The translations under genes and the position numbers were made by a program. Below the pieces are notes generated by a model. That model made no database searches. It saw nothing but the letters and a program-made list of their open reading frames with translations, and was not told the DNA's origin. Below are positions 7,614-64,000 of a stretch of DNA of 64,000 nt, piece by piece; position 1 is the first letter of the stretch; the number at the start of each line of letters is the position of its first letter. Location of the stretch: positions 11,759-75,758 of the forward strand of contig JAZRRE010000003.1 of NCBI GenBank assembly GCA_045650505.1, read 5' to 3'. The stretch comes from Clostridia bacterium. GTDB taxonomy: Bacteria; Bacillota; Clostridia; Christensenellales; UBA1242.

Positions 7614-8279
7614 ATGAAATTTTTAATGTTCGGAGCACCTATGGCAGGCAAGGGTACACTTGCAAATATGTTATCAGAGAAGTATAACCTTCCAACAATC
7701 TCTATGGGTGACATCTTAAGAGCAAGCATTGCTCGTGGTGATGAAGAAGGAAAACTTGCTAAACACTATATGGACCAAGGTCAAATGGTTCCAATTGAAG
7801 TTGTTTGTGCAATGATTAAGAAAAGACTTGCAGAGCCAGATGTTCAAGAAGGATTCATTTTAGATGGTTTCCCAAGAACACCTGAACAACTTGATTATTT
7901 CGTTAAAGAAAAAATCGCTGAACTCGATGCAGTTGTAAGCCTTGAAGTTCCTTATGAAACACTCTTATCACGTGTTGTTGGCAGAAGAACTTGCAAATCT
8001 TGTGGTTATATCTATAACACAAGCTGGAATCTTGGATATAAAGTATGTCCAAAATGTAACGGTGAATGGGGAATTAGAAGTGATGACAATGAAGAAACTT
8101 ATAAAACTCGTTATGATGTTTATATGAGTGAAACACTTCCAATTTTAGACTATTTCAAAAAAGAAGGAAAAGTTGTTGAAGTTGTTGGCGATAAAGAGCC
8201 AGAACAAAGCTACAACAATATGGTTGAAGCTTTCAAAAACAGCTCAATTCCTGGACTTAAAGAATTCATTGAAGGTTAA
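7614..8279 (+). CDS. adk: Adenylate kinase (zinc-lid type)
   Basis: P-loop GAPMAGKGT and lid with CKSCG...CPKCNG. Follows secY. Confidence 0.95.
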   Translation: MKFLMFGAPMAGKGTLANMLSEKYNLPTISMGDILRASIARGDEEGKLAKHYMDQGQMVPIEVVCAMIKKRLAEPDVQEGFILDGFPRTPEQLDYFVKEKIAELDAVVSLEVPYETLLSRVVGRRTCKSCGYIYNTSWNLGYKVCPKCNGEWGIRSDDNEETYKTRYDVYMSETLPILDYFKKEGKVVEVVGDKEPEQSYNNMVEAFKNSSIPGLKEFIEG

Positions 8280-8303
8280 TAACCTTTAAAGCATAAATCT
8301 CTA

Positions 8304-8337
8304 GAATATTAACCCCAGAATATTGGGGTTAATATTC
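8304..8337 (+). terminator. Strong hairpin after adk (13-bp perfect arms, 8-nt loop), terminator-like
   Basis: GAATATTAACCCC-agaatatt-GGGGTTAATATTC. The T-run is displaced ~7 nt downstream, so termination efficiency is uncertain. Confidence 0.55.
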
Positions 8338-8381
8338 GACAAGATTTTTTTAATTTTATTAAAAAATTTTTATGTTATATC

Positions 8382-8409
8382 TTGACAAAAATTGATATTT
8401 AAATATAAT
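8382..8409 (+). promoter_or_regulatory. Sigma-A-type promoter upstream of infA-rpmJ
   Basis: TTGACA (8382-8387), 16-nt spacer, TATAAT (8404-8409). Confidence 0.6.
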
Positions 8410-8614
8410 TATTAAAGAGGGAATATTCCCGATTTTTTGCGTGTTTAGATATTTTTTTCAATAATTTTTGTCGAAAAATAACCGAAATTTGGCAATGATT
8501 GTTAAAATGTTTAGTTTTAATAATAATTACGCAAGAAAAATTAGCGTTTTGCTACGAATTTTGCTTGGAAAACTTCAAGTAAAAACAAAATCTTCAATTT
8601 GGAGGAATAATCTT

Positions 8615-8833
8615 TTGAGTAAAGATGATGTAATTGAAACAGAGGGCGTTGTGGTTGAGGCTATGCCTGGCGCAACATTTAAAGTTCAAATTGCTGGTGG
8701 ACATATTGTCACAGCATATTTATCTGGAAAACTCTGGAAAAATTTTATTCGTGTTTATGAGGGCGACACAGTAAAACTTGAAATCAGCCCTTATGATTTA
8801 ACTCGTGGAAGAATTATCTGGCGTAGCAAATAA
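8615..8833 (+). CDS. infA: Translation initiation factor IF-1 (TTG start)
   Basis: SKDDVIETEGVVVEAMPGATFKVQ...RGRIIWRSK is IF-1. GGAGG at 8601-8605 lies 9 nt before in-frame TTG 8615. The ORF-track N-terminal extension is non-homologous. Confidence 0.9.
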   Translation: MSKDDVIETEGVVVEAMPGATFKVQIAGGHIVTAYLSGKLWKNFIRVYEGDTVKLEISPYDLTRGRIIWRSK

Positions 8834-53636: not shown

Positions 53637-53739
53637 ATAAATTCTCTCCTAAACAAATTATTGTCAAGTCTTAAATTTTTATTCAAAAAAGTTCTAATAT
53701 AATTTCTAAAATAATAGACTATTTCTAATGGGGGAATTT

Positions 53740-55209
53740 ATGGAAAATTTAATTGTTCAAGCAAAGAAAAAAATTACTTTAGACAAGTTTGTTTCATCAG
53801 TCAAAATTTTGACAACAAATGAGATTAAATCGATTTTGAATATTTCAGCAAAAGCAGTTTTGAGTCAGATTGAACAGTCTAATAATGTGATTACCTTAAG
53901 TGGAAAAATTATTGCGAATGTGATTTATTTGAGTCAAGATAATCAAATTTTATCAGCTGAAACGATGATGGATTTTATTGAAAAACAACAGGTTTTAACA
54001 TCACTTCAAGAGATGACTGCAATTGATAATGTAAGTGTTAAAATTGACACTTTTTCAGGCACTGAAATTCTATGCTCTGTCACACATAATACCTATATTT
54101 TCGGAATTTACAGCTATGAAATTGCAGATTTTGTTGGAGAGAACACTGCTTTTGTTTTAAACAAAAAAACATTTAATTCAAAAAAATTTGTGACTGCTTG
54201 CAGTGATAATTTTGTGGTTGCAGAAGAACAAGAAAGCAACATTTTAAACTTAAAAGTTTTAGAGTGTAAAGCCAAGGTTTTAAACTATGAAGCATCAGCG
54301 GGGGTTGATAAAATTATTGTTTCAGGCAAGCTTTTAGTTGAAACAATTTATGATGATGGAGAACTTTCGGTGATTACAAAAGATTTTGAGTTCAAACAAG
54401 AAATTGAGGCTCAAGGTGTTGTTCCAAATATGTTTGTTGATGCTCTTTTAAATGTGAATAATGTAACTGTTACACCAGAAGATAGAGAGAATAAAACTAA
54501 CATTGTTTATGTGCTTGATGCATTTGCAAAAGGTTATGTTTTTGAAGATTATGAATATGAAATTGCAACAGATATGTTTGCACTAGACAGTGAAATTCAA
54601 AACACCTTTGAGTTTTTAGAGTTTAGAAATTTTAGCAGTGAAAACGCCACAAGTGATATATTTATCAGTCAAACAGATGTTTCAAAGATAGAAAATTTCG
54701 ATGATATTATTGGTGTGTTTGATGCAAAAACCAAATTAAACGAGGTGATTTTAACTAATGATAAAGCAGTAATTGATTTTACTGTTTCAGCATTTGCACT
54801 TTATAAGTCGGGTGAAAATGTTAAAAGATTAGATGTTTCACATTTGGCAAAGTTTGAATTTGACAAAACTCAAGAAGAATTTGTTGAGGATGTAAGGCTT
54901 ATTGCTGAAATTTCTTCATTTAAGGTTAAAGCAGGAAAAGAGTTAGAAGTGGCATTTAAAGTTAGTGCAGAAGTTAAAAAATCAACAGAAGTTAGTGAAA
55001 AGTTTGTTAAGTCTTATGAAATTAAAGAAGTAAAAAACATTTCTAATGATGGAATTAAAGTTTATGTAACTAGAGCAGGTGAAACGCTTTTTGATGTCGC
55101 AAAAGTGCTCTGTGTTAGACCTGAAATTATTGAAGAACAAAATCAAATTGATGGTGTTTTTGAAGAAGGTGAAAAAATTTATGTTTATTCACCAATAAAC
55201 ATTATTTAA
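53740..55209 (+). CDS. DUF3794-repeat protein with a C-terminal LysM domain (SipL / SpoVID-functional-analog-like)
   Basis: C-terminal LysM (IKVYVTRAGETLFDVAKVLCVRPEIIEEQNQI...GEKIYV). The size and architecture match clostridial SipL as I recall it. Confidence 0.65.
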   Translation: MENLIVQAKKKITLDKFVSSVKILTTNEIKSILNISAKAVLSQIEQSNNVITLSGKIIANVIYLSQDNQILSAETMMDFIEKQQVLTSLQEMTAIDNVSVKIDTFSGTEILCSVTHNTYIFGIYSYEIADFVGENTAFVLNKKTFNSKKFVTACSDNFVVAEEQESNILNLKVLECKAKVLNYEASAGVDKIIVSGKLLVETIYDDGELSVITKDFEFKQEIEAQGVVPNMFVDALLNVNNVTVTPEDRENKTNIVYVLDAFAKGYVFEDYEYEIATDMFALDSEIQNTFEFLEFRNFSSENATSDIFISQTDVSKIENFDDIIGVFDAKTKLNEVILTNDKAVIDFTVSAFALYKSGENVKRLDVSHLAKFEFDKTQEEFVEDVRLIAEISSFKVKAGKELEVAFKVSAEVKKSTEVSEKFVKSYEIKEVKNISNDGIKVYVTRAGETLFDVAKVLCVRPEIIEEQNQIDGVFEEGEKIYVYSPINII

Positions 55210-55265: not shown

Positions 55266-56270
55266 ATGGAAGAAACATCAAAAAATAAAATTGATACAAC
55301 ACTTTATAATGAAAAATCACTATATTTGCTCAATATTCGTGAGCTTCGTGATATGGGCAGAAAATTTGGGGTTCCATCTCCAACAACTTTGAAAAAACAA
55401 GATTTAGTTGAATATATCTTAAAGATTGTTTATGGCGAAGTTGCTCCAACAAGAAGCAATTATGGCAGACCAAATGTTCGTGAATTTGAAATGGATAAGT
55501 GTTTAGATAAGATTAAGAAAAATACAGATATAACTGATGAACTTTTAAAATTTACACTTGATGACTTTTCGGCAATTGCTGATTTGAAAGTTGCAATGCC
55601 AAAGGAAAAGCAAATTGCAGATAACATTAAAACTTTGGTTTATATTGAAGAAGATGATAAGTGTTTTTTAAAAAAACACGCGTTTGTGTCATCGAAAGAT
55701 GATATTAAAATTGGAAAAGAACTTGCAGAAAAACTTGAGCTTGTGGATTATGATGTTATTGAAGCAAGGGTTGAAGGTGAGTTGTTTAAAATAATCACCG
55801 TTAATGGAAATCGAAAAAATAACAAGTTTAAAGATTTTGTTATTAAAAGCAACACCCTTGAAGCTGGAAAACAAACAGTTTTTGATATTGAAACTAATGA
55901 AGAAAAAGAAAACATCATTTTAAACATTCAAAATGAATGTCAAGAACGTGATTTGAATCTTGTTATTTTTGCAAATAAAAAATGCACCGGTTGGTGCACT
56001 AACTGTGTTGAATATAATTTAGAAGATGATTTTTCAATCACTTACAAAAACTTTATGAAGTTTATGGGAGAATGTGAAAAACACATTTTCAAAGGCGAAG
56101 ATATTGTTGTTTTGATTGATGAAATGGCTGTTGTTAACAATGTTTTAGATGCTTTTGATGAAGATGTTAACAAAAGAGCAAAAACAAATGTAAGTGAAGC
56201 GGTTAACAAAATTTTGGCACTTGAAAATCTTGTGATTGCATTTAGAAAAATAGAAGTTAAAGAATTTTAA
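55266..56270 (+). CDS. Hypothetical protein with an N-terminal Rho_N/SAP-like motif
   Basis: LYLLNIRELRDMGRKFGVPSPTTLKKQDLVEYIL resembles the Rho N-terminal helix-extended-helix. Confidence 0.6.
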   Translation: MEETSKNKIDTTLYNEKSLYLLNIRELRDMGRKFGVPSPTTLKKQDLVEYILKIVYGEVAPTRSNYGRPNVREFEMDKCLDKIKKNTDITDELLKFTLDDFSAIADLKVAMPKEKQIADNIKTLVYIEEDDKCFLKKHAFVSSKDDIKIGKELAEKLELVDYDVIEARVEGELFKIITVNGNRKNNKFKDFVIKSNTLEAGKQTVFDIETNEEKENIILNIQNECQERDLNLVIFANKKCTGWCTNCVEYNLEDDFSITYKNFMKFMGECEKHIFKGEDIVVLIDEMAVVNNVLDAFDEDVNKRAKTNVSEAVNKILALENLVIAFRKIEVKEF

Positions 56271-56537: not shown

Positions 56538-56605
56538 AATTACCTCTAAAAAATATGATATCAAAACACAAAAAAATAATCAAGCAAAACATTTTCAAAT
56601 TTAGA

Positions 56606-56634
56606 TTGACAATAAATATATTTTATAATATAAT
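56606..56634 (+). promoter_or_regulatory. Consensus promoter upstream of greA
   Basis: TTGACA (56606-56611), 17 nt, TATAAT (56629-56634). Confidence 0.7.
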
Positions 56635-56680
56635 ACACTCAATTTTTGGGGCAAATTTATTTGCTATAAGGAGAGAAATA

Positions 56681-57148
56681 ATGGCAGAATTATTTATCAC
56701 AGCAGCAGGAAAAGCTGAAAAAGAAGAAAGATTAAGATATTTAAAGAATGAGAAAAGACCAGAAGTTTTGGAAAAACTTAAAGTAGCTCGTGATTTTGGT
56801 GACCTTTCTGAAAATGCTGAATATGATGCAGCAAAGAAAGAACAATCAATTTTAGAAACAGAAATTGCTTCAATTGAAGAAACTTTAAGAAAAGCAAAAA
56901 TCATTGATAGCACAGATGTAACAATGGATACAGTTGGTGTTGGAAATGTGGTTACAGTTTTTGATGAAGACTTTGGAGAAGAAGATACATACACAATTGT
57001 TGGTGTTATTGAAAGTGACCCAAACAGGAATTTGGTTTCAAACGAATCTCCAATTGGCAGTGGTTTGATGGGCAAAAAGGTGGGTGACACAGCAGAAATC
57101 ACAACACCTGGTGGCATTATCAAAATGAAAATATTAAAGATTTCTTAA
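56681..57148 (+). CDS. greA: Transcription elongation factor GreA
   Basis: RPEVLEKLKVARDFGDLSENAEYDAAKKEQ is the GreA coiled-coil signature. AAGGAGAG lies before ATG 56681. Confidence 0.93.
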   Translation: MAELFITAAGKAEKEERLRYLKNEKRPEVLEKLKVARDFGDLSENAEYDAAKKEQSILETEIASIEETLRKAKIIDSTDVTMDTVGVGNVVTVFDEDFGEEDTYTIVGVIESDPNRNLVSNESPIGSGLMGKKVGDTAEITTPGGIIKMKILKIS

Positions 57149-59407: not shown

Positions 59408-59584
59408 ATGGCATATACAATTGACGCTGAAAAATGTATCGGTTGTGGAGCTTGCGCAGGCGCTTGTCCTGTTGCTGCAATCACACCAACAGATGATGGA
59501 AAAATGGTTATTGATGCAGAAAAATGTATTTCTTGCGGAACTTGTCAAGCTGTTTGTCCTGTAGGGGCACCTGTAAGTGAATAA
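59408..59584 (+). CDS. 2x[4Fe-4S] ferredoxin (58 aa)
   Basis: Hand translation gives MAYTIDAEKCIGCGACAGACPV...CISCGTCQAVCPVGAPVSE*. Two CxxCxxCxxxCP motifs. AAGGAG RBS. Confidence 0.88.
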   Translation: MAYTIDAEKCIGCGACAGACPVAAITPTDDGKMVIDAEKCISCGTCQAVCPVGAPVSE

Positions 59585-60321: not shown

Positions 60322-60993
60322 ATGATTGATAAAAATCACTTTAAAGAAATAGTAAAAAATAGAAAAGCAGAAGATTTTTTAGATTCAAGAGAAACTATTT
60401 TATGGAGGGGTATTCCTAAAAAATCTGCTTATGTGTTAGGCAAAACCATATCAATGGCACCTATTGCAATTGTTTGGCTCATATTTGACCTTGGTTTTAT
60501 TATTGCGGCTGCAACACTTGGAGATATTGGAGCAATTTGGCTTTTTTTGATTCCATTTTTTGCAATTCATATGACACCCGTTTGGATTTGGCTTGCTGGT
60601 TTGCTTAAAGCGGGAAAAGAAACAAAAACAATTGAGTATGTAATTACCGATAAGAGAATCATTGAATTTAAAGGTGAAGTAAAATATATTTCTTCGCAAA
60701 TCTTTTTAAAAGAATTAAAAGGTGCAAGACTTTCAAGAAATATTGTTGATAAAATCTTGAGAGTTGGCGATATTTACATTGAAGAAAATGGTGGCAGAGA
60801 GCTTGTGCTTTTTGATATTCCTAATAGTGAATTTATGCATACTAAAATTCTTGAACTTTGTGGAACAAAATCAAAAACTGATGAGTTTTATGAAAATCAT
60901 TCAGCTTGTGAGCATTGTGGTTCATATTACAGCAACACAAGTTCAAAATGTCCAAATTGTGGTGCACCTAAAGATAAAGTTAAAAGAAAATAA
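60322..60993 (+). CDS. Membrane bPH (YdbS/YdbT-like) domain protein with a C-terminal zinc ribbon
   Basis: ILWRGIPKK, then two TM segments, then ITDKRIIEFKG..., and finally CEHCG...CPNCG. Confidence 0.65.
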   Translation: MIDKNHFKEIVKNRKAEDFLDSRETILWRGIPKKSAYVLGKTISMAPIAIVWLIFDLGFIIAAATLGDIGAIWLFLIPFFAIHMTPVWIWLAGLLKAGKETKTIEYVITDKRIIEFKGEVKYISSQIFLKELKGARLSRNIVDKILRVGDIYIEENGGRELVLFDIPNSEFMHTKILELCGTKSKTDEFYENHSACEHCGSYYSNTSSKCPNCGAPKDKVKRK

Positions 60994-61112
60994 AAAACAC
61001 CCAGACTCAACATTGAGTTTGGGGTTTTATTTTTTAAAACAAGCTAAATGATTATGTTTAAAATATTCTATATGTTAAAATAAAAGTATCTTTTTGTTTA
61101 GGAGAACAGATT

Positions 61113-61532
61113 ATGATAAAAGACTATGTGCATAAAGTGCAATATTATGAAACAGACAAAATGGGGGTTACTCACCATTCAAATTACATAAGGTTTATGG
61201 AAGAGGCAAGAGTTGATTTTATGGACCAAATTGGTTATGGTTATGATAGAATGGAAAATGATGGATTTGCTGCTCCTGTTATAAATGTGGATTGTGATTT
61301 TAAAAAATCAACCACTTATGCCGATATTATTTCTGTTTCAGTAAAAGTTGTTGAAATTAGCCAAGTTCGAATAAAATTTGAATATATTATGAGGGTTAAA
61401 GATGAAGTTGTGTTTAAAGGCACAAGTTCTCATTGTTGTTTAAATCAAGAAGGAAAGGTGATTTCATTAAAACGTGAAAAGCCTGAAATTTATGAATTAT
61501 TTTTAAGTTATTTGGAAAATAAAGAAAAATAA
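61113..61532 (+). CDS. Acyl-CoA thioesterase, 4HBT/YbgC family
   Basis: HKVQYYETDKMGVTHHSNYIRFMEEARVDF is a hotdog-fold thioesterase signature. Confidence 0.85.
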   Translation: MIKDYVHKVQYYETDKMGVTHHSNYIRFMEEARVDFMDQIGYGYDRMENDGFAAPVINVDCDFKKSTTYADIISVSVKVVEISQVRIKFEYIMRVKDEVVFKGTSSHCCLNQEGKVISLKREKPEIYELFLSYLENKEK

Positions 61533-61668
61533 TAACTCAAATCAAAATTTTTCAGAAAAAGTGAAAATATTTGATGATAATGGTGTAATTTGATATATAA
61601 AAATAACTATTGCTATTGACTTAAATTGATTTTTAAGGTATAATGCTTATATAATAAGAGAGGTGTTT

Positions 61669-62220
61669 ATGAATATAGATGAACTTCAAGATGCAGGTGT
61701 TGAGTTTTTCGATGTTTCTGAAAATGAGTTATTTCCATTTTCAACAACTTGGAAAAAAACTTTTGAAGCGATTGAAAAATCACTTAAAGAACTTAACAAC
61801 GAACAAGAAAAAGAAAGAATTTTGCAAAAAGTTTCAAATATCGTAAATGTGCTTGTTAGATATGGAACAACTTATGAAGATATTGTTCTTGAAATTGCCG
61901 AGCTTTATATTTTTGCAAGAGAAGCAAAAATTGCTCCAGATTTTTTTGAAAAATCATACGGAAAAGGAATTGTTGAGTCTGTTATTTGTTTGAATAACGC
62001 ACTTGACACAGAAGAAAAGAGAAAAGCAGTTTTTGAAAATGAAAAACACAGATATTTAGGAAAAATCAAAATTGCAGACTATTTAGTTGAACTTGTAGAG
62101 AATAAATCAATTTCAAAAGAATATAAAAAGGAAATTGATGAAGTTATTAAACATTATGAAAATAGAAGCCACAAGGCATTAATGAGAATGTTAATTGCCG
62201 AAAGAAAAAGAATAAAATAA
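61669..62220 (+). CDS. Hypothetical helical protein (183 aa) upstream of the RelA/SpoT-like fusion gene
   Basis: Clean ORF with a GAGAGGTG RBS. No motif recognised. Ends 19 nt before the next gene. Confidence 0.55.
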   Translation: MNIDELQDAGVEFFDVSENELFPFSTTWKKTFEAIEKSLKELNNEQEKERILQKVSNIVNVLVRYGTTYEDIVLEIAELYIFAREAKIAPDFFEKSYGKGIVESVICLNNALDTEEKRKAVFENEKHRYLGKIKIADYLVELVENKSISKEYKKEIDEVIKHYENRSHKALMRMLIAERKRIK

Positions 62221-62239
62221 AGGGAGAAAAATTTTTATT

Positions 62240-64000
62240 ATGGCAGAACAAAAAAAACAAAACGACAATTTAACACCAGGAGGCAGTGACCAACCAGAAG
62301 TTTTATCAGAAATTTTTGATAAACTTTACAGTAAACAGGAAAGAAGTGTTTTAGAAGATTGGATTGCTAACATTAAATCAGACCTTGAAAGCGTTCCAGA
62401 TGTTGATGGGTTTGTTATGTCGAGAATTAAAGGACCTCTTTCAATCTTGAAGAAGGTTAATGGAGATAGCAAATATTTAGCTGAATGGAACACAATGAAA
62501 GACCTTTTAGGATTTATGGTGGTTGTTGATTCAAATGCTGAAATTGATACTTTGCTTTATTATATGCAAACACACTTTGGTATGTTAAAAAATCCTAATG
62601 CAAAGACTTTTATTAGTGATTTTAGAAAGAAACCAATTCGTGAACCAGACCCAACAAGACCAAAAATTTTTGATGCTCCATCACCAAAGGGATATCAAGT
62701 TAACGATGGTTATAAAAACGTTAGAATAAACTTGATGGTTTCAGAATATCCTGTTGAAATTCAAGTTAAAACACGTGAACAATATGTTGCTCATATGGCA
62801 ACTCACGACCCTGTTTATAAGTCTAAAATTATTCCAGATGAAATTTCAGCTCATCGTTTTTCTGATGCACTTTTCCCATATTTTGAAGCTTATGCTCATT
62901 TAAAACTTAAAGAAGATGAGATGACTCCAACTCAAATGGAAAACTGCAAAAAGGATATGAGAGCTATCTTTGAAAGAAATAAAGATATTTATGAACAATA
63001 TCCTGAAGTTTATAATGAAGCTTGTAGCATTTTTGCGGTTTATGTTTTTGTTATGAAAAACCGTGAACAACTTTATGCTGATGCACTTTTAGATGATTCA
63101 GTTGTAAACAATCAACTTTTAGAAGCAGAAATCTTGAGAATTTTCCACTATAAACAAAAAGAATTGCTTAAAAAAGATAAGTCACTCACTGACAGTAAGT
63201 CGTTTATGAAAACTGCTGAAGAAATTATGAGTATGTCTTATGATGAATACAAAGAAACATCTAAAAAGCTTGCGGGTGAATATCGTAAAGAGCTTTGCAT
63301 TATTTCAGGTGTATTTGATATGATTCGTGAACAAGATATCAACCTTATTAAAAGATGTGCAAAAAGCTTTAGAAGGGTTGTTGTGTCTGTTTATGATGAT
63401 GACCTTGCAAAACTTTATCTTGGAATTGAACCAATGTACACAACAGCTGAAAGAATGAAAGCACTTGAAATGATTGATGATGTTGCAAGTGTCAGTGTTG
63501 TTGGAATTGATGGTTCTGTTAATGATAAAGAAATGGTTGAACCATTCATCATTGATAAACCGGTTCAAAAGAAATATAAACTTGGATATCTTCCAGGTGT
63601 GTTTGATTTATTCCACCCGGGACATATTGAGTATATTCAAGAAGCATCAAAACTTTGCGAAAGACTTGTTGTTGGCATTAAAACTGATGATTATGTTATG
63701 CTTAACAAAAAGAAAACAACCATTCAAAATGAAAGAGAAAGAGCAATTATTGCAGATGCTCTTGTTTGTGTTGATGGTGTTGAAATTACCGGTTATGATA
63801 TCACACCGCCAATTAGAGTGCTTCACGAATTAGAAGAAGTTGGAAAAAATGGTGAGGGTGCAGTTATTTTCTTGGGTTCAGATTGGCATAAGCCAGAAAC
63901 TTTGAAGAAAAAGAGCCCTTTAAGTTTGGGTGAGTATGAAATGCTTCAAAAAGGTTACCCAATGATTGAATTTGGAAAAATTCCAAGAGGCGAAAGCAAA
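62240..64000 (+). CDS. RelA/SpoT-like nucleotidyltransferase domain fused to two cytidylyltransferase-like domains (3' end outside the window)
   Basis: Hand-translated with no stop to base 64000 (587 codons). Motifs: SRIKGPLSILKK...DLLGFMVVV...GYKNVRINLMVSEYPVEIQVKTREQYVAHMATHDPVYK (RSH synthetase-like), ISGVFDMIREQD... (degenerate HIGH), and GVFDLFHPGHIEYIQ...GSDW...IPRGES (TagD-like). Absent from the ORF track because it is open-ended. Confidence 0.8.
   Translation, partial: MAEQKKQNDNLTPGGSDQPEVLSEIFDKLYSKQERSVLEDWIANIKSDLESVPDVDGFVMSRIKGPLSILKKVNGDSKYLAEWNTMKDLLGFMVVVDSNAEIDTLLYYMQTHFGMLKNPNAKTFISDFRKKPIREPDPTRPKIFDAPSPKGYQVNDGYKNVRINLMVSEYPVEIQVKTREQYVAHMATHDPVYKSKIIPDEISAHRFSDALFPYFEAYAHLKLKEDEMTPTQMENCKKDMRAIFERNKDIYEQYPEVYNEACSIFAVYVFVMKNREQLYADALLDDSVVNNQLLEAEILRIFHYKQKELLKKDKSLTDSKSFMKTAEEIMSMSYDEYKETSKKLAGEYRKELCIISGVFDMIREQDINLIKRCAKSFRRVVVSVYDDDLAKLYLGIEPMYTTAERMKALEMIDDVASVSVVGIDGSVNDKEMVEPFIIDKPVQKKYKLGYLPGVFDLFHPGHIEYIQEASKLCERLVVGIKTDDYVMLNKKKTTIQNERERAIIADALVCVDGVEITGYDITPPIRVLHELEEVGKNGEGAVIFLGSDWHKPETLKKKSPLSLGEYEMLQKGYPMIEFGKIPRGESK

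Follow-up and report, generated by a model that had tools for sequence, protein, structure and literature searches.

A RelA/SpoT-type synthetase fused to a tandem cytidylyltransferase module in a predicted three-gene operon of uncultured gut Clostridia

The 64,000-nucleotide stretch of contig JAZRRE010000003.1 from a Clostridia bacterium (hereafter the window) ends within a gene, here called RSH-CT, that encodes a RelA/SpoT homolog (RSH) synthetase domain followed by two cytidylyltransferase (CT) folds. The reading frame starts at ATG 62240 on the forward strand and stays open through the window end at position 64000, covering 587 codons. A sequence-only reading of the window had described this frame as running off the stretch and as missing from the list of open reading frames (ORFs); translation confirms the former, and the latter holds as ORFs that leave the source go unlisted. 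Complete homologs are ~614 amino acids (aa) long, and the window ORF represents the first 587 of ~614 codons. A search of 5.8 billion proteins found 60 homolog clusters (589-666 aa) with identical architecture, and the frame is a real gene rather than a chance frame because ~60 homolog clusters share its length and architecture. The sole database name for any of these homologs is 'adenylyltransferase/cytidyltransferase family protein [Clostridia bacterium]'. RSH-CT is predicted to consist of three parts: a divergent RelA/SpoT synthetase, a degenerate half cytidylyltransferase (CT1) and an intact cytidylyltransferase (CT2). The gene occupies the middle of a predicted three-gene operon that comprises a promoter, a gene for a degenerate homolog of the small alarmone hydrolases (SAHs), RSH-CT, a gene for an NrnA-like DHH/DHHA1 phosphoesterase and a terminator, of which the phosphoesterase gene and the terminator are supplied by relatives (Table 1).

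The N-terminal part of RSH-CT contains the motifs of a RelA/SpoT-type synthetase, a predicted 3'-pyrophosphokinase. The Pfam family RelA_SpoT (PF04607) matches residues 61-195 with 33 bits against a gathering cutoff of 27, and its score drops below threshold in some distant family members. Across 76 sequences, invariant residues are found in the ATP-phosphate cluster (R62, K64, S68 and K72), the Mg2+-binding D88-xx-G91 motif, the G157-Y158-K159 motif (Y158, the acceptor-stacking tyrosine, and K159), the E173-I-Q175-x-K177-T178 motif (the catalytic glutamate E173, Q175, K177 and T178) and the H189-xxx-Y193-K194 motif. These motifs align residue for residue with those of Rel_Seq and RelQ, and the solved RSH proteins are very remote in sequence, with a best profile E-value of ~1e-4 (Rel_Seq, RelP, RelQ and FaRel2). 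The synthetase core is the most constrained region of the protein, with a mean pairwise identity of 53% and 20 invariant positions compared with one in CT2, and its catalytic motifs are lost in no family member, including the lineages in which the CT site is dead. The motifs of the small alarmone synthetase (SAS) type that had been noticed at residues ~55-200 are thus borne out by Pfam, motif alignment and Foldseek. Because the catalytic residues are intact and invariant, the domain does not qualify as a structural relic; with all core catalytic residues present, it is predicted to be catalytically intact. The acceptor region (residues ~117-156) harbors a family-specific insertion of ~40 residues with invariant residues of its own, such as N118 and Y152, which suggests an unusual acceptor.

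A helical region connects the synthetase core to the CT module. A Pfam scan of this region (residues 197-345) returned no match, and its first part is common to stand-alone SAS relatives. A CapRel-like ancestry of the region was considered and finds no sequence support: the outgroup SAS matches RelP, and the stand-alone SAS of locus L017, described below, gives weak matches to Rel.

In the CT module, Pfam CTP_transf_like matches two stretches when the whole protein is scanned (61.9 bits, best at residues 451-551). CT1 scanned alone (residues 340-445) gives a match at residues 355-422 with 26.7 bits against a cutoff of 21 bits, spans only positions 2-67 of the 133 in the profile and shows MIREQD at the HxGH site, in agreement with the earlier description of residues ~350-430 as a nucleotidyltransferase fold without HxGH. 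The intact cytidylyltransferase proposed from residue ~445 onward, with GVFDLFHPGH, GSDW and a distal IPRGES, is likewise recovered as CT2. IPRGES opens a motif that the window truncates: PRGESK stands at the window edge, and complete homologs continue with RSSTGYR (family pattern PRGxSxRSSTxYR). We read this pattern, of which the window stops before RSST, as the counterpart of the RTxGISTT motif of the cytidylyltransferase family. CT2 scores 62 bits with the NCBIfam model cyt_tran_rel (cutoff 27.7) and stays under the equivalog cutoffs of rfaE_dom_II (75.1 versus 181.5), TagD (45.8 versus 165.4) and CoaD (35.8 versus 103.3). The best specific models for CT2 are thus those of heptose-1-phosphate adenylyltransferase, TagD and CoaD, all far under cutoff, and the sequence matches of the CT region in the Protein Data Bank (PDB) are ethanolamine-phosphate cytidylyltransferase (ECT), HldC, TagD and CCT. 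The HxGH, GSDW and RSST motifs of CT2 are retained jointly in ~88% of clusters and decay jointly in the rest, which comprise ~7 of 60 clusters (mildly altered P0022 and P0031, and P0036, P0039/P0043 and P0054/P0055). CT catalysis therefore appears to be under selection, as judged from this joint retention. Together, CT1 and CT2 are predicted to form a pseudo-dimeric tandem module of a dead half-domain and an intact domain, like that of eukaryotic ECT.

An AlphaFold2 (AF2) model supports this domain arrangement. The model was built for P0001, a complete homolog 89% identical to the window protein, from a 57-sequence alignment and has a pLDDT of 89.2 and a pTM of 0.84. In a Foldseek search of the PDB, its top match is human ECT, with an E-value of 3e-8 and 323 columns across CT1 and CT2. 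CapRel is the second-best match (7e-7), and RelQ (1e-5), TagD (TMt 0.76), RelP and Rel_Seq are also found.

The gene upstream of RSH-CT encodes a 183-aa protein and is preceded by a Shine-Dalgarno sequence (AGAGAGGTG) ahead of its ATG; its stop at position 62220 lies 19 nt ahead of the RSH-CT ATG. A Pfam scan of the 183-aa protein returned no match. BLAST ties the protein to an ORF of locus L017 that is a textbook HD_4 SAH (THIQEV...ALHDVLEDT...IKLADRIHNL). SAHs are a class that includes some antitoxins of the toxic SAS (toxSAS) enzymes. Alignment of the 183-aa family profile (alignment A4) with the L017 HD_4 SAH by hhalign gave a probability of 89% and an E-value of 2e-6 across 145 columns. 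The AF2 model of the protein (pLDDT 83) is all-helical, and the top 25 Foldseek matches in the PDB are all SpoT-type HD hydrolases (Mesh1, Pseudomonas aeruginosa SAH and the N-terminal domain of Rel), with TM scores up to 0.67, though with weak E-values of 0.05-0.7. The metal ligands of the hydrolase (H...HD...D) are replaced, with H changed to K, HD to Y[IV/L/A] and ED to [RK]E. A family hidden Markov model finds the ORF upstream in 19 related cassette loci, and the HD dyad is kept in none of the 19. The protein is designated pseudo-SAH because it has SAH homology and the SAH fold while no member keeps the HD dyad. The pseudo-SAH gene is missing from L005 and from the clade of L012, L014 and L015 (two lineages, four loci), where the RSH domain, CT2 and the DHH gene are intact. 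The sequence-only reading had proposed the upstream gene as a partner of RSH-CT; this is broadly borne out by the SAH homology. The lost HD ligands and the absence from four loci speak against a classical toxin-antitoxin pairing.

The gene downstream of RSH-CT in relatives encodes a 315-aa DHH/DHHA1 protein. In relatives whose RSH-CT is 87-89% identical to the window protein, it begins 2 nt past the RSH-CT stop, and in L002 its Shine-Dalgarno sequence lies within the end of the RSH-CT gene. The DHH gene is found downstream in 15 of the 15 genome loci whose downstream DNA is available, at RSH-CT identities as low as 32%; the two genes overlap by up to 17 nt or are separated by up to 16 nt, except in L014, where the distance is 186 nt. 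The same linkage is seen in four more independent loci (L018/L019, L020, L027 and L029). The partner matches Pfam DHH (70 bits) and DHHA1 (39 bits), and its catalytic motifs PDxDS, NIDHH, DTNxF and GGGGHKKEAGF are invariant in 15 sequences. Its scores with the NCBIfam NrnA equivalog model (62-90 bits) lie under the cutoff of 350 bits. A role as a dedicated, cassette-only enzyme was rejected, since homologs with 52-64% identity stand alone elsewhere. A second, weak DHH/DHHA1 gene (DHH 24.9 bits, DHHA1 20.1 bits), convergent to the cassette DHH gene, is confined to the closest relatives.

The presence of the DHH gene follows the state of the CT2 site. The DHH gene is present in each of the 17 loci with an intact CT site and in the two with a mildly altered one. 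Three independent CT-dead lineages (P0054/L025, P0043/L026 and P0036/L028) have no DHH gene downstream, and in L028 no frame stays open across the 108 nt that follow the RSH-CT stop. The association (17:0 versus 0:3) gives a Fisher p of ~9e-4, uncorrected for phylogeny. In the CT-dead loci L025, L026 and L028, pseudo-SAH is still found upstream and the RSH motifs are intact. Taken together, the patterns of loss and retention suggest two sub-modules, in which pseudo-SAH goes with the RSH domain and CT2 goes with the DHH enzyme. The idea that the DHH enzyme hydrolyses the RSH product in place of the dead HD partner is weakened, because the CT-dead lineages keep the RSH domain and pseudo-SAH yet drop the DHH gene. 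Separately, Zeta_toxin-family genes occupy the DHH position in the CT-dead locus L025 (L025:4837-5811 and 7825-8685, minus strand).

RSH-CT proteins form a rare family. A profile of the N-terminal 340 residues, run against 1.84 billion representatives at 50% identity, found ~20 full-length clusters and 25 matches with E<=1e-30; the next tier consists of stand-alone SAS-like proteins of 330-380 aa with RelA_SpoT only and without a CT domain. Among 185,579 species-representative genomes, the gene occurs in 16, all of them metagenome-assembled genomes (MAGs) of uncultured gut Clostridia or Christensenella; every genome that carries the cassette is a MAG. Among detectable relatives, the SAH and SAS genes of L017 are the nearest to the two window genes. 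Profile comparison of the RSH part with the L017 stand-alone SAS gave a probability of 97% and an E-value of 7e-11, and the match reaches the FPYFE helix. The L017 pair lies beside an integrase-like ORF and is probably a mobile toxSAS/SAH pair.

The cassette begins with a putative sigma-70-like promoter. TTGACT-17-TATAAT is the best promoter match within positions 60900-64000, and an identical site is found in L002 at 1868-1896; it is a consensus match, the overall count of promoter matches being not above shuffle expectation. At the other end, a 14-bp hairpin with T-runs is located past the DHH stop in L002. Further upstream, past the end of the bPH_2-domain gene, lies a conserved hairpin of high G+C content with a T-run (window 61000-61023; L002:1258-1279), which is likely a terminator that separates the bPH_2-domain gene from the thioesterase gene and the cassette. 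A search of public sequencing runs yielded only DNA metagenomes, at 5-8% of sampled words, and no RNA runs.

The flanking genes differ entirely between subclades, and only the three cassette genes travel together. Depending on the subclade, the upstream flank carries a thioesterase gene and a bPH gene, holB/trmH/mrnC-like genes, His_Phos_1 or a GIY-YIG gene, and the downstream flank carries Phage_30_3 with greA, Vut_1, or MscL with SUF genes. The setting consists of housekeeping genes (greA, holB and ricT), is common to close relatives and holds a single copy of the cassette per locus examined. A YbgC-type thioesterase gene lies upstream in the window and is elsewhere limited to the closest relatives. 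In no subclade examined does the cassette have conserved neighbors from envelope or cofactor pathways. PADLOC gave a single match of 18.6 bits, to the candidate family PDC-S33, and PADLOC and PHROGs gave no pointer to a defence or phage origin.

Several other features were observed around the cassette. In the window, the GreA ORF at 56555-57148, read from the first start codon, has a ~45-residue N-terminal extension ahead of GreA_GreB_N; relatives have a second GreA paralog (39% identical; L001:12591-13094) and a Phage_30_3-like gene immediately past the cassette. A 334-aa protein encoded at 55266-56270 contains Rho_N only (29.8 bits), without the Rho helicase part, and is conserved in L001. 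Positions 53728-55209 encode a 493-aa protein with SipL/SPOCS domains (61.9 bits), which are indicative of a spore-forming lineage of Clostridia. A 58-aa ORF (59408-59584) lies between ricT and a methyltransferase gene, and the corresponding position in L001 is occupied by a small 4Fe-4S ferredoxin gene with multiple Fer4 Pfam matches.

Table 1. Cassette features and related loci. Positions refer to the window unless a locus is given; residues are those of RSH-CT.
Feature	Position	Strand	Evidence or remark
Putative operon promoter, sigma-70-like TTGACT-17 nt-TATAAT	61616..61644	+	11/12 consensus match
Pseudo-SAH gene, 183 aa, HD-fold SAH homolog without metal ligands	61669..62220	+	hhalign, AF2, Foldseek
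RSH-CT fusion gene	62240..64000	+	Open at window end; middle gene of predicted three-gene operon
RelA/SpoT-type synthetase core (predicted 3'-pyrophosphokinase), residues 56-196	62405..62827	+	Pfam, motifs, Foldseek
Helical region, residues 197-345	62828..63274	+	AF2 all-helix; invariant P213 (conserved FPYFE helix) and D239
CT1, degenerate half cytidylyltransferase, residues 346-425	63275..63514	+	Pfam, motif table, Foldseek
CT2, predicted intact cytidylyltransferase, residues 445-587 onward	63572..64000	+	Pfam 41-62 bits; GVFDLFHPGH, K481, GSDW
SAH and SAS pair (HD_4 SAH, then 391-aa stand-alone SAS)	L017:6164-7936		Clostridium sp. MAG
Integrase-like ORF	L017:2834-4045	-	Beside SAH and SAS pair
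DUF6076 ORF	L017:4759-5916		
Second DHH/DHHA1 gene	L001:10834-11754; L004:4533-5489	-	Pfam

Enzymes of the HxGH cytidylyltransferase family transfer a nucleoside monophosphate (NMP) from a nucleoside triphosphate (NTP) to a phosphate monoester with release of pyrophosphate (PPi), and DHH-DHHA1 enzymes of the NrnA/Pde2 type hydrolyse pAp, dinucleotides and very short RNAs. RSH enzymes pyrophosphorylate the 3'-OH of nucleotides (GDP/GTP and ATP/ADP/AMP) or the CCA end of tRNA (bioRxiv 10.1101/2021.04.30.441581). For many years (p)ppGpp was regarded as their sole product. The synthesis of (pp)pApp and the pyrophosphorylation of tRNA have since been shown, and further chemistries have been predicted (bioRxiv 10.1101/2021.04.30.441581).

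We tentatively favor, at somewhat under an even chance, a reading in which the cassette would be a coupled module that makes and degrades a modified hyperphosphorylated nucleotide. In this two-step model, ATP would donate its beta,gamma-pyrophosphate, which the RSH domain would place on the ribose 3'-OH of an acceptor nucleotide. CT2 would then catalyze the NTP-dependent nucleotidylation of a phosphate monoester and release PPi; its most economical substrate would be a phosphate of the RSH substrate or product, and the outcome would be a pyrophosphate-linked, hyperphosphorylated (di)nucleotide. The DHH/DHHA1 enzyme would turn over the CT-dependent product by hydrolysis, and pseudo-SAH would regulate the RSH domain as a non-catalytic binding partner, a role similar to that of the inactive hydrolase domain in RelA. 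The model is favored because it is the most economical fit to the fusion and to the co-variation of CT2 with the DHH gene. The synthesis of an unusual nucleotide, suggested in the sequence-only reading, is still the best reading, and the downstream DHH/DHHA1 partner seen in relatives adds support to it. A bolder version, which we regard as doubtful, holds that the cassette would be a complete synthesis and degradation system for a new nucleotide messenger of gut Clostridia. In this version, the RSH domain would 3'-pyrophosphorylate a nucleotide, CT2 would cap a phosphate of it with an NMP to yield a hyperphosphorylated, pyrophosphate-linked dinucleotide, the DHH/DHHA1 enzyme would be the phosphodiesterase dedicated to this product, and pseudo-SAH would act as a sensor or regulator.

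A number of observations weigh against the two-step model. The arginine of the DxxGxR motif is a methionine in the RSH-CT family. The correlation between the CT site and the DHH gene rests on three loss events only, and the fusion protein is kept with a dead CT in several lineages, so that the RSH activity would be valuable alone and would not have to supply CT2. Stand-alone genes of the DHH subfamily also exist, at 52-64% identity, in genomes without RSH-CT nearby; the dependence between CT2 and the DHH enzyme is therefore one-way, and the DHH enzyme may be the ordinary NrnA of the lineage, co-opted by the cassette. Moreover, the last ~27 RSH-CT codons and the DHH gene lie beyond position 64000 and are taken from relatives 87-89% identical to the window protein.

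The main rival explanation holds that RSH-CT would be a conventional, regulated alarmone synthetase: the RSH domain would make (p)ppGpp or (pp)pApp, the tandem CT would sense a nucleotide or metabolite in the place of TGS/ACT, pseudo-SAH would be a second regulator and the DHH enzyme would be a housekeeping NrnA that is co-transcribed by synteny. The invariance of the RSH motifs in the most constrained domain, the retention of the protein despite CT-site decay in ~7 of 60 clusters, the existence of the DHH subfamily without RSH-CT and the identity of the nearest solved sequence relatives (RelP, RelQ and Rel, all of which make alarmones) agree with this explanation. The joint retention of the CT motifs in ~88% of clusters, however, exceeds the needs of ligand binding alone, and the DHH linkage outlasts the complete turnover of the flanks and is lost exactly where CT is dead. 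The acceptor-region insertion with its invariant residues also points to an unusual acceptor. A regulated alarmone synthetase is accordingly considered somewhat unlikely. An uncoupled bifunctional fusion, in which CT2 would make an ordinary CDP-alcohol, ADP-sugar or cofactor intermediate and the RSH domain an alarmone, with mere co-regulation such as growth-rate control of envelope or cofactor synthesis, appears quite improbable. The best matches of CT2 are indeed heptose-1-phosphate adenylyltransferase, TagD, ECT and CCT, and the YbgC-type thioesterase gene is located upstream in the window. Nevertheless, CT2 is far under every equivalog cutoff, no envelope or cofactor neighbors are conserved in any subclade, with the thioesterase restricted to the closest relatives, and the DHH linkage and its tracking of CT activity would be left unexplained. 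The coupling of alarmone signalling to the synthesis of envelope-polymer precursors, suggested in the sequence-only reading, is unsupported, because no envelope-polymer genes are linked and CT2 is far below the TagD and HldE cutoffs.

The relationship to the L017 pair raises the further explanation that the cassette is a domesticated toxSAS or anti-phage module, in which the RSH domain would pyrophosphorylate the tRNA 3'-CCA end or overwhelm the cell with (pp)pApp, pseudo-SAH would be a direct-binding, type II antitoxin and the DHH enzyme would detoxify. The nearest relatives of both window genes are an SAH and SAS pair beside an integrase, CapRel, a tRNA pyrophosphokinase, ranks second among the Foldseek matches, toxSAS enzymes are known to be counteracted by SAHs and one CT-dead copy (L025) adjoins Zeta_toxin genes. 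However, an essential antitoxin should persist, and pseudo-SAH is missing in L005, L012, L014 and L015, in which the RSH motifs are intact. The cassette also occurs in a housekeeping setting common to close relatives, as a single copy per examined locus; its PADLOC score is 18.6 bits only, and in sequence the outgroup SAS matches RelP rather than CapRel. A domesticated toxSAS also appears quite improbable in light of these features. A classical toxin-antitoxin pairing, which the sequence-only reading had raised for consideration, is not supported because the HD ligands are lost, pseudo-SAH is dispensable, being missing in four loci, and the context is one of housekeeping genes.

The two-step model derives its interest from the combination of parts, namely the fusion of a predicted intact RSH synthetase with a predicted intact HIGH-motif nucleotidyltransferase, a dead hydrolase partner and a DHH linkage that tracks the transferase activity expected from the CT motifs. 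The proposed new nucleotide product is directly testable with three small recombinant proteins. If the model is true, a function would be assigned to genes that are unnamed or called 'adenylyltransferase/cytidyltransferase family protein' in abundant uncultured gut and rumen Clostridia.

RSH-CT resembles RelQ, RelP and Rel_Seq in the RelA_SpoT fold and the core motifs RxKxxxSxxxK, DxxG, GY, EIQx[RK]T and HxxxYK but differs from them in the ~40-residue acceptor insertion, the methionine at the arginine position of DxxGxR and the two extra domains. With ~614 aa and two CT-fold domains, it falls outside the strict definition of a single-domain SAS (~200-380 aa). Like long RSH RelA, the cassette would combine an active synthetase with a degenerate HD-fold partner, and the Foldseek matches of pseudo-SAH include the N-terminal regions of Rel and RelA. 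In the cassette, however, the pseudo-HD domain is a separate polypeptide, and the TGS, ZFD and ACT domains are absent, with the tandem CT in their place. The toxSAS systems (CapRel, FaRel2 and PhRel2) share with the cassette an RSH synthetase adjoining a gene of the RSH-hydrolase fold, a CapRel-like fold and mobile SAH and SAS relatives. In contrast, the hydrolase homolog of the cassette is dead and dispensable in some lineages, the setting is conserved and housekeeping, the cassette is not in PADLOC, and the synthetase has CT domains in the same polypeptide and a DHH enzyme as a linked partner.

The tandem CT pseudo-dimer in one chain is shared with ECT/Pcyt2 (PDB 3elb/4xsv), which residues ~346-614 match best in both sequence and fold. 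The identity is 16%, CT1 of RSH-CT is truncated and lacks HxGH, and ECT has no RSH domain; a likeness of substrates is not implied. CT2 has HxGH, a conserved lysine, (G/H)xDW and a C-terminal (R)SST in common with TagD, HldE domain II, HldC and CCT, and it differs from them in that it lies under all equivalog cutoffs, lacks pathway neighbors and is fused to an RSH domain. The downstream partner has both domains, all catalytic motifs and a length (315 aa) similar to those of NrnA/Pde2-type DHH-DHHA1 enzymes, but it scores under the NrnA cutoff (62-90 versus 350 bits) and appears translationally coupled to the RSH-CT gene.

Neither the RSH surveys of 2011 and 2020 nor the tRNA-pyrophosphorylation paper refers to a fusion of an RSH with a cytidylyltransferase or to a DHH linkage, and full-text literature searches that paired SAS or alarmone with cytidylyltransferase, or RelA_SpoT with CTP_transf_like, yielded no account of the fusion. 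The first impression that the architecture had not been described therefore holds for these sources. Precedents for RSH fusions are the dual-domain SAS of Mycobacterium smegmatis (PMC7591505) and a DUF429-SAS (PMC3153485). The M. smegmatis protein likewise joins an RSH synthetase domain to a second domain related to nucleic acids or nucleotides, but this partner is not a HIGH-motif nucleotidyltransferase, the protein belongs to other taxa and it is not part of an operon with pseudo-SAH and DHH genes. RSH-CT and its operon represent a new RSH architecture in which each domain comes from a well-known superfamily.

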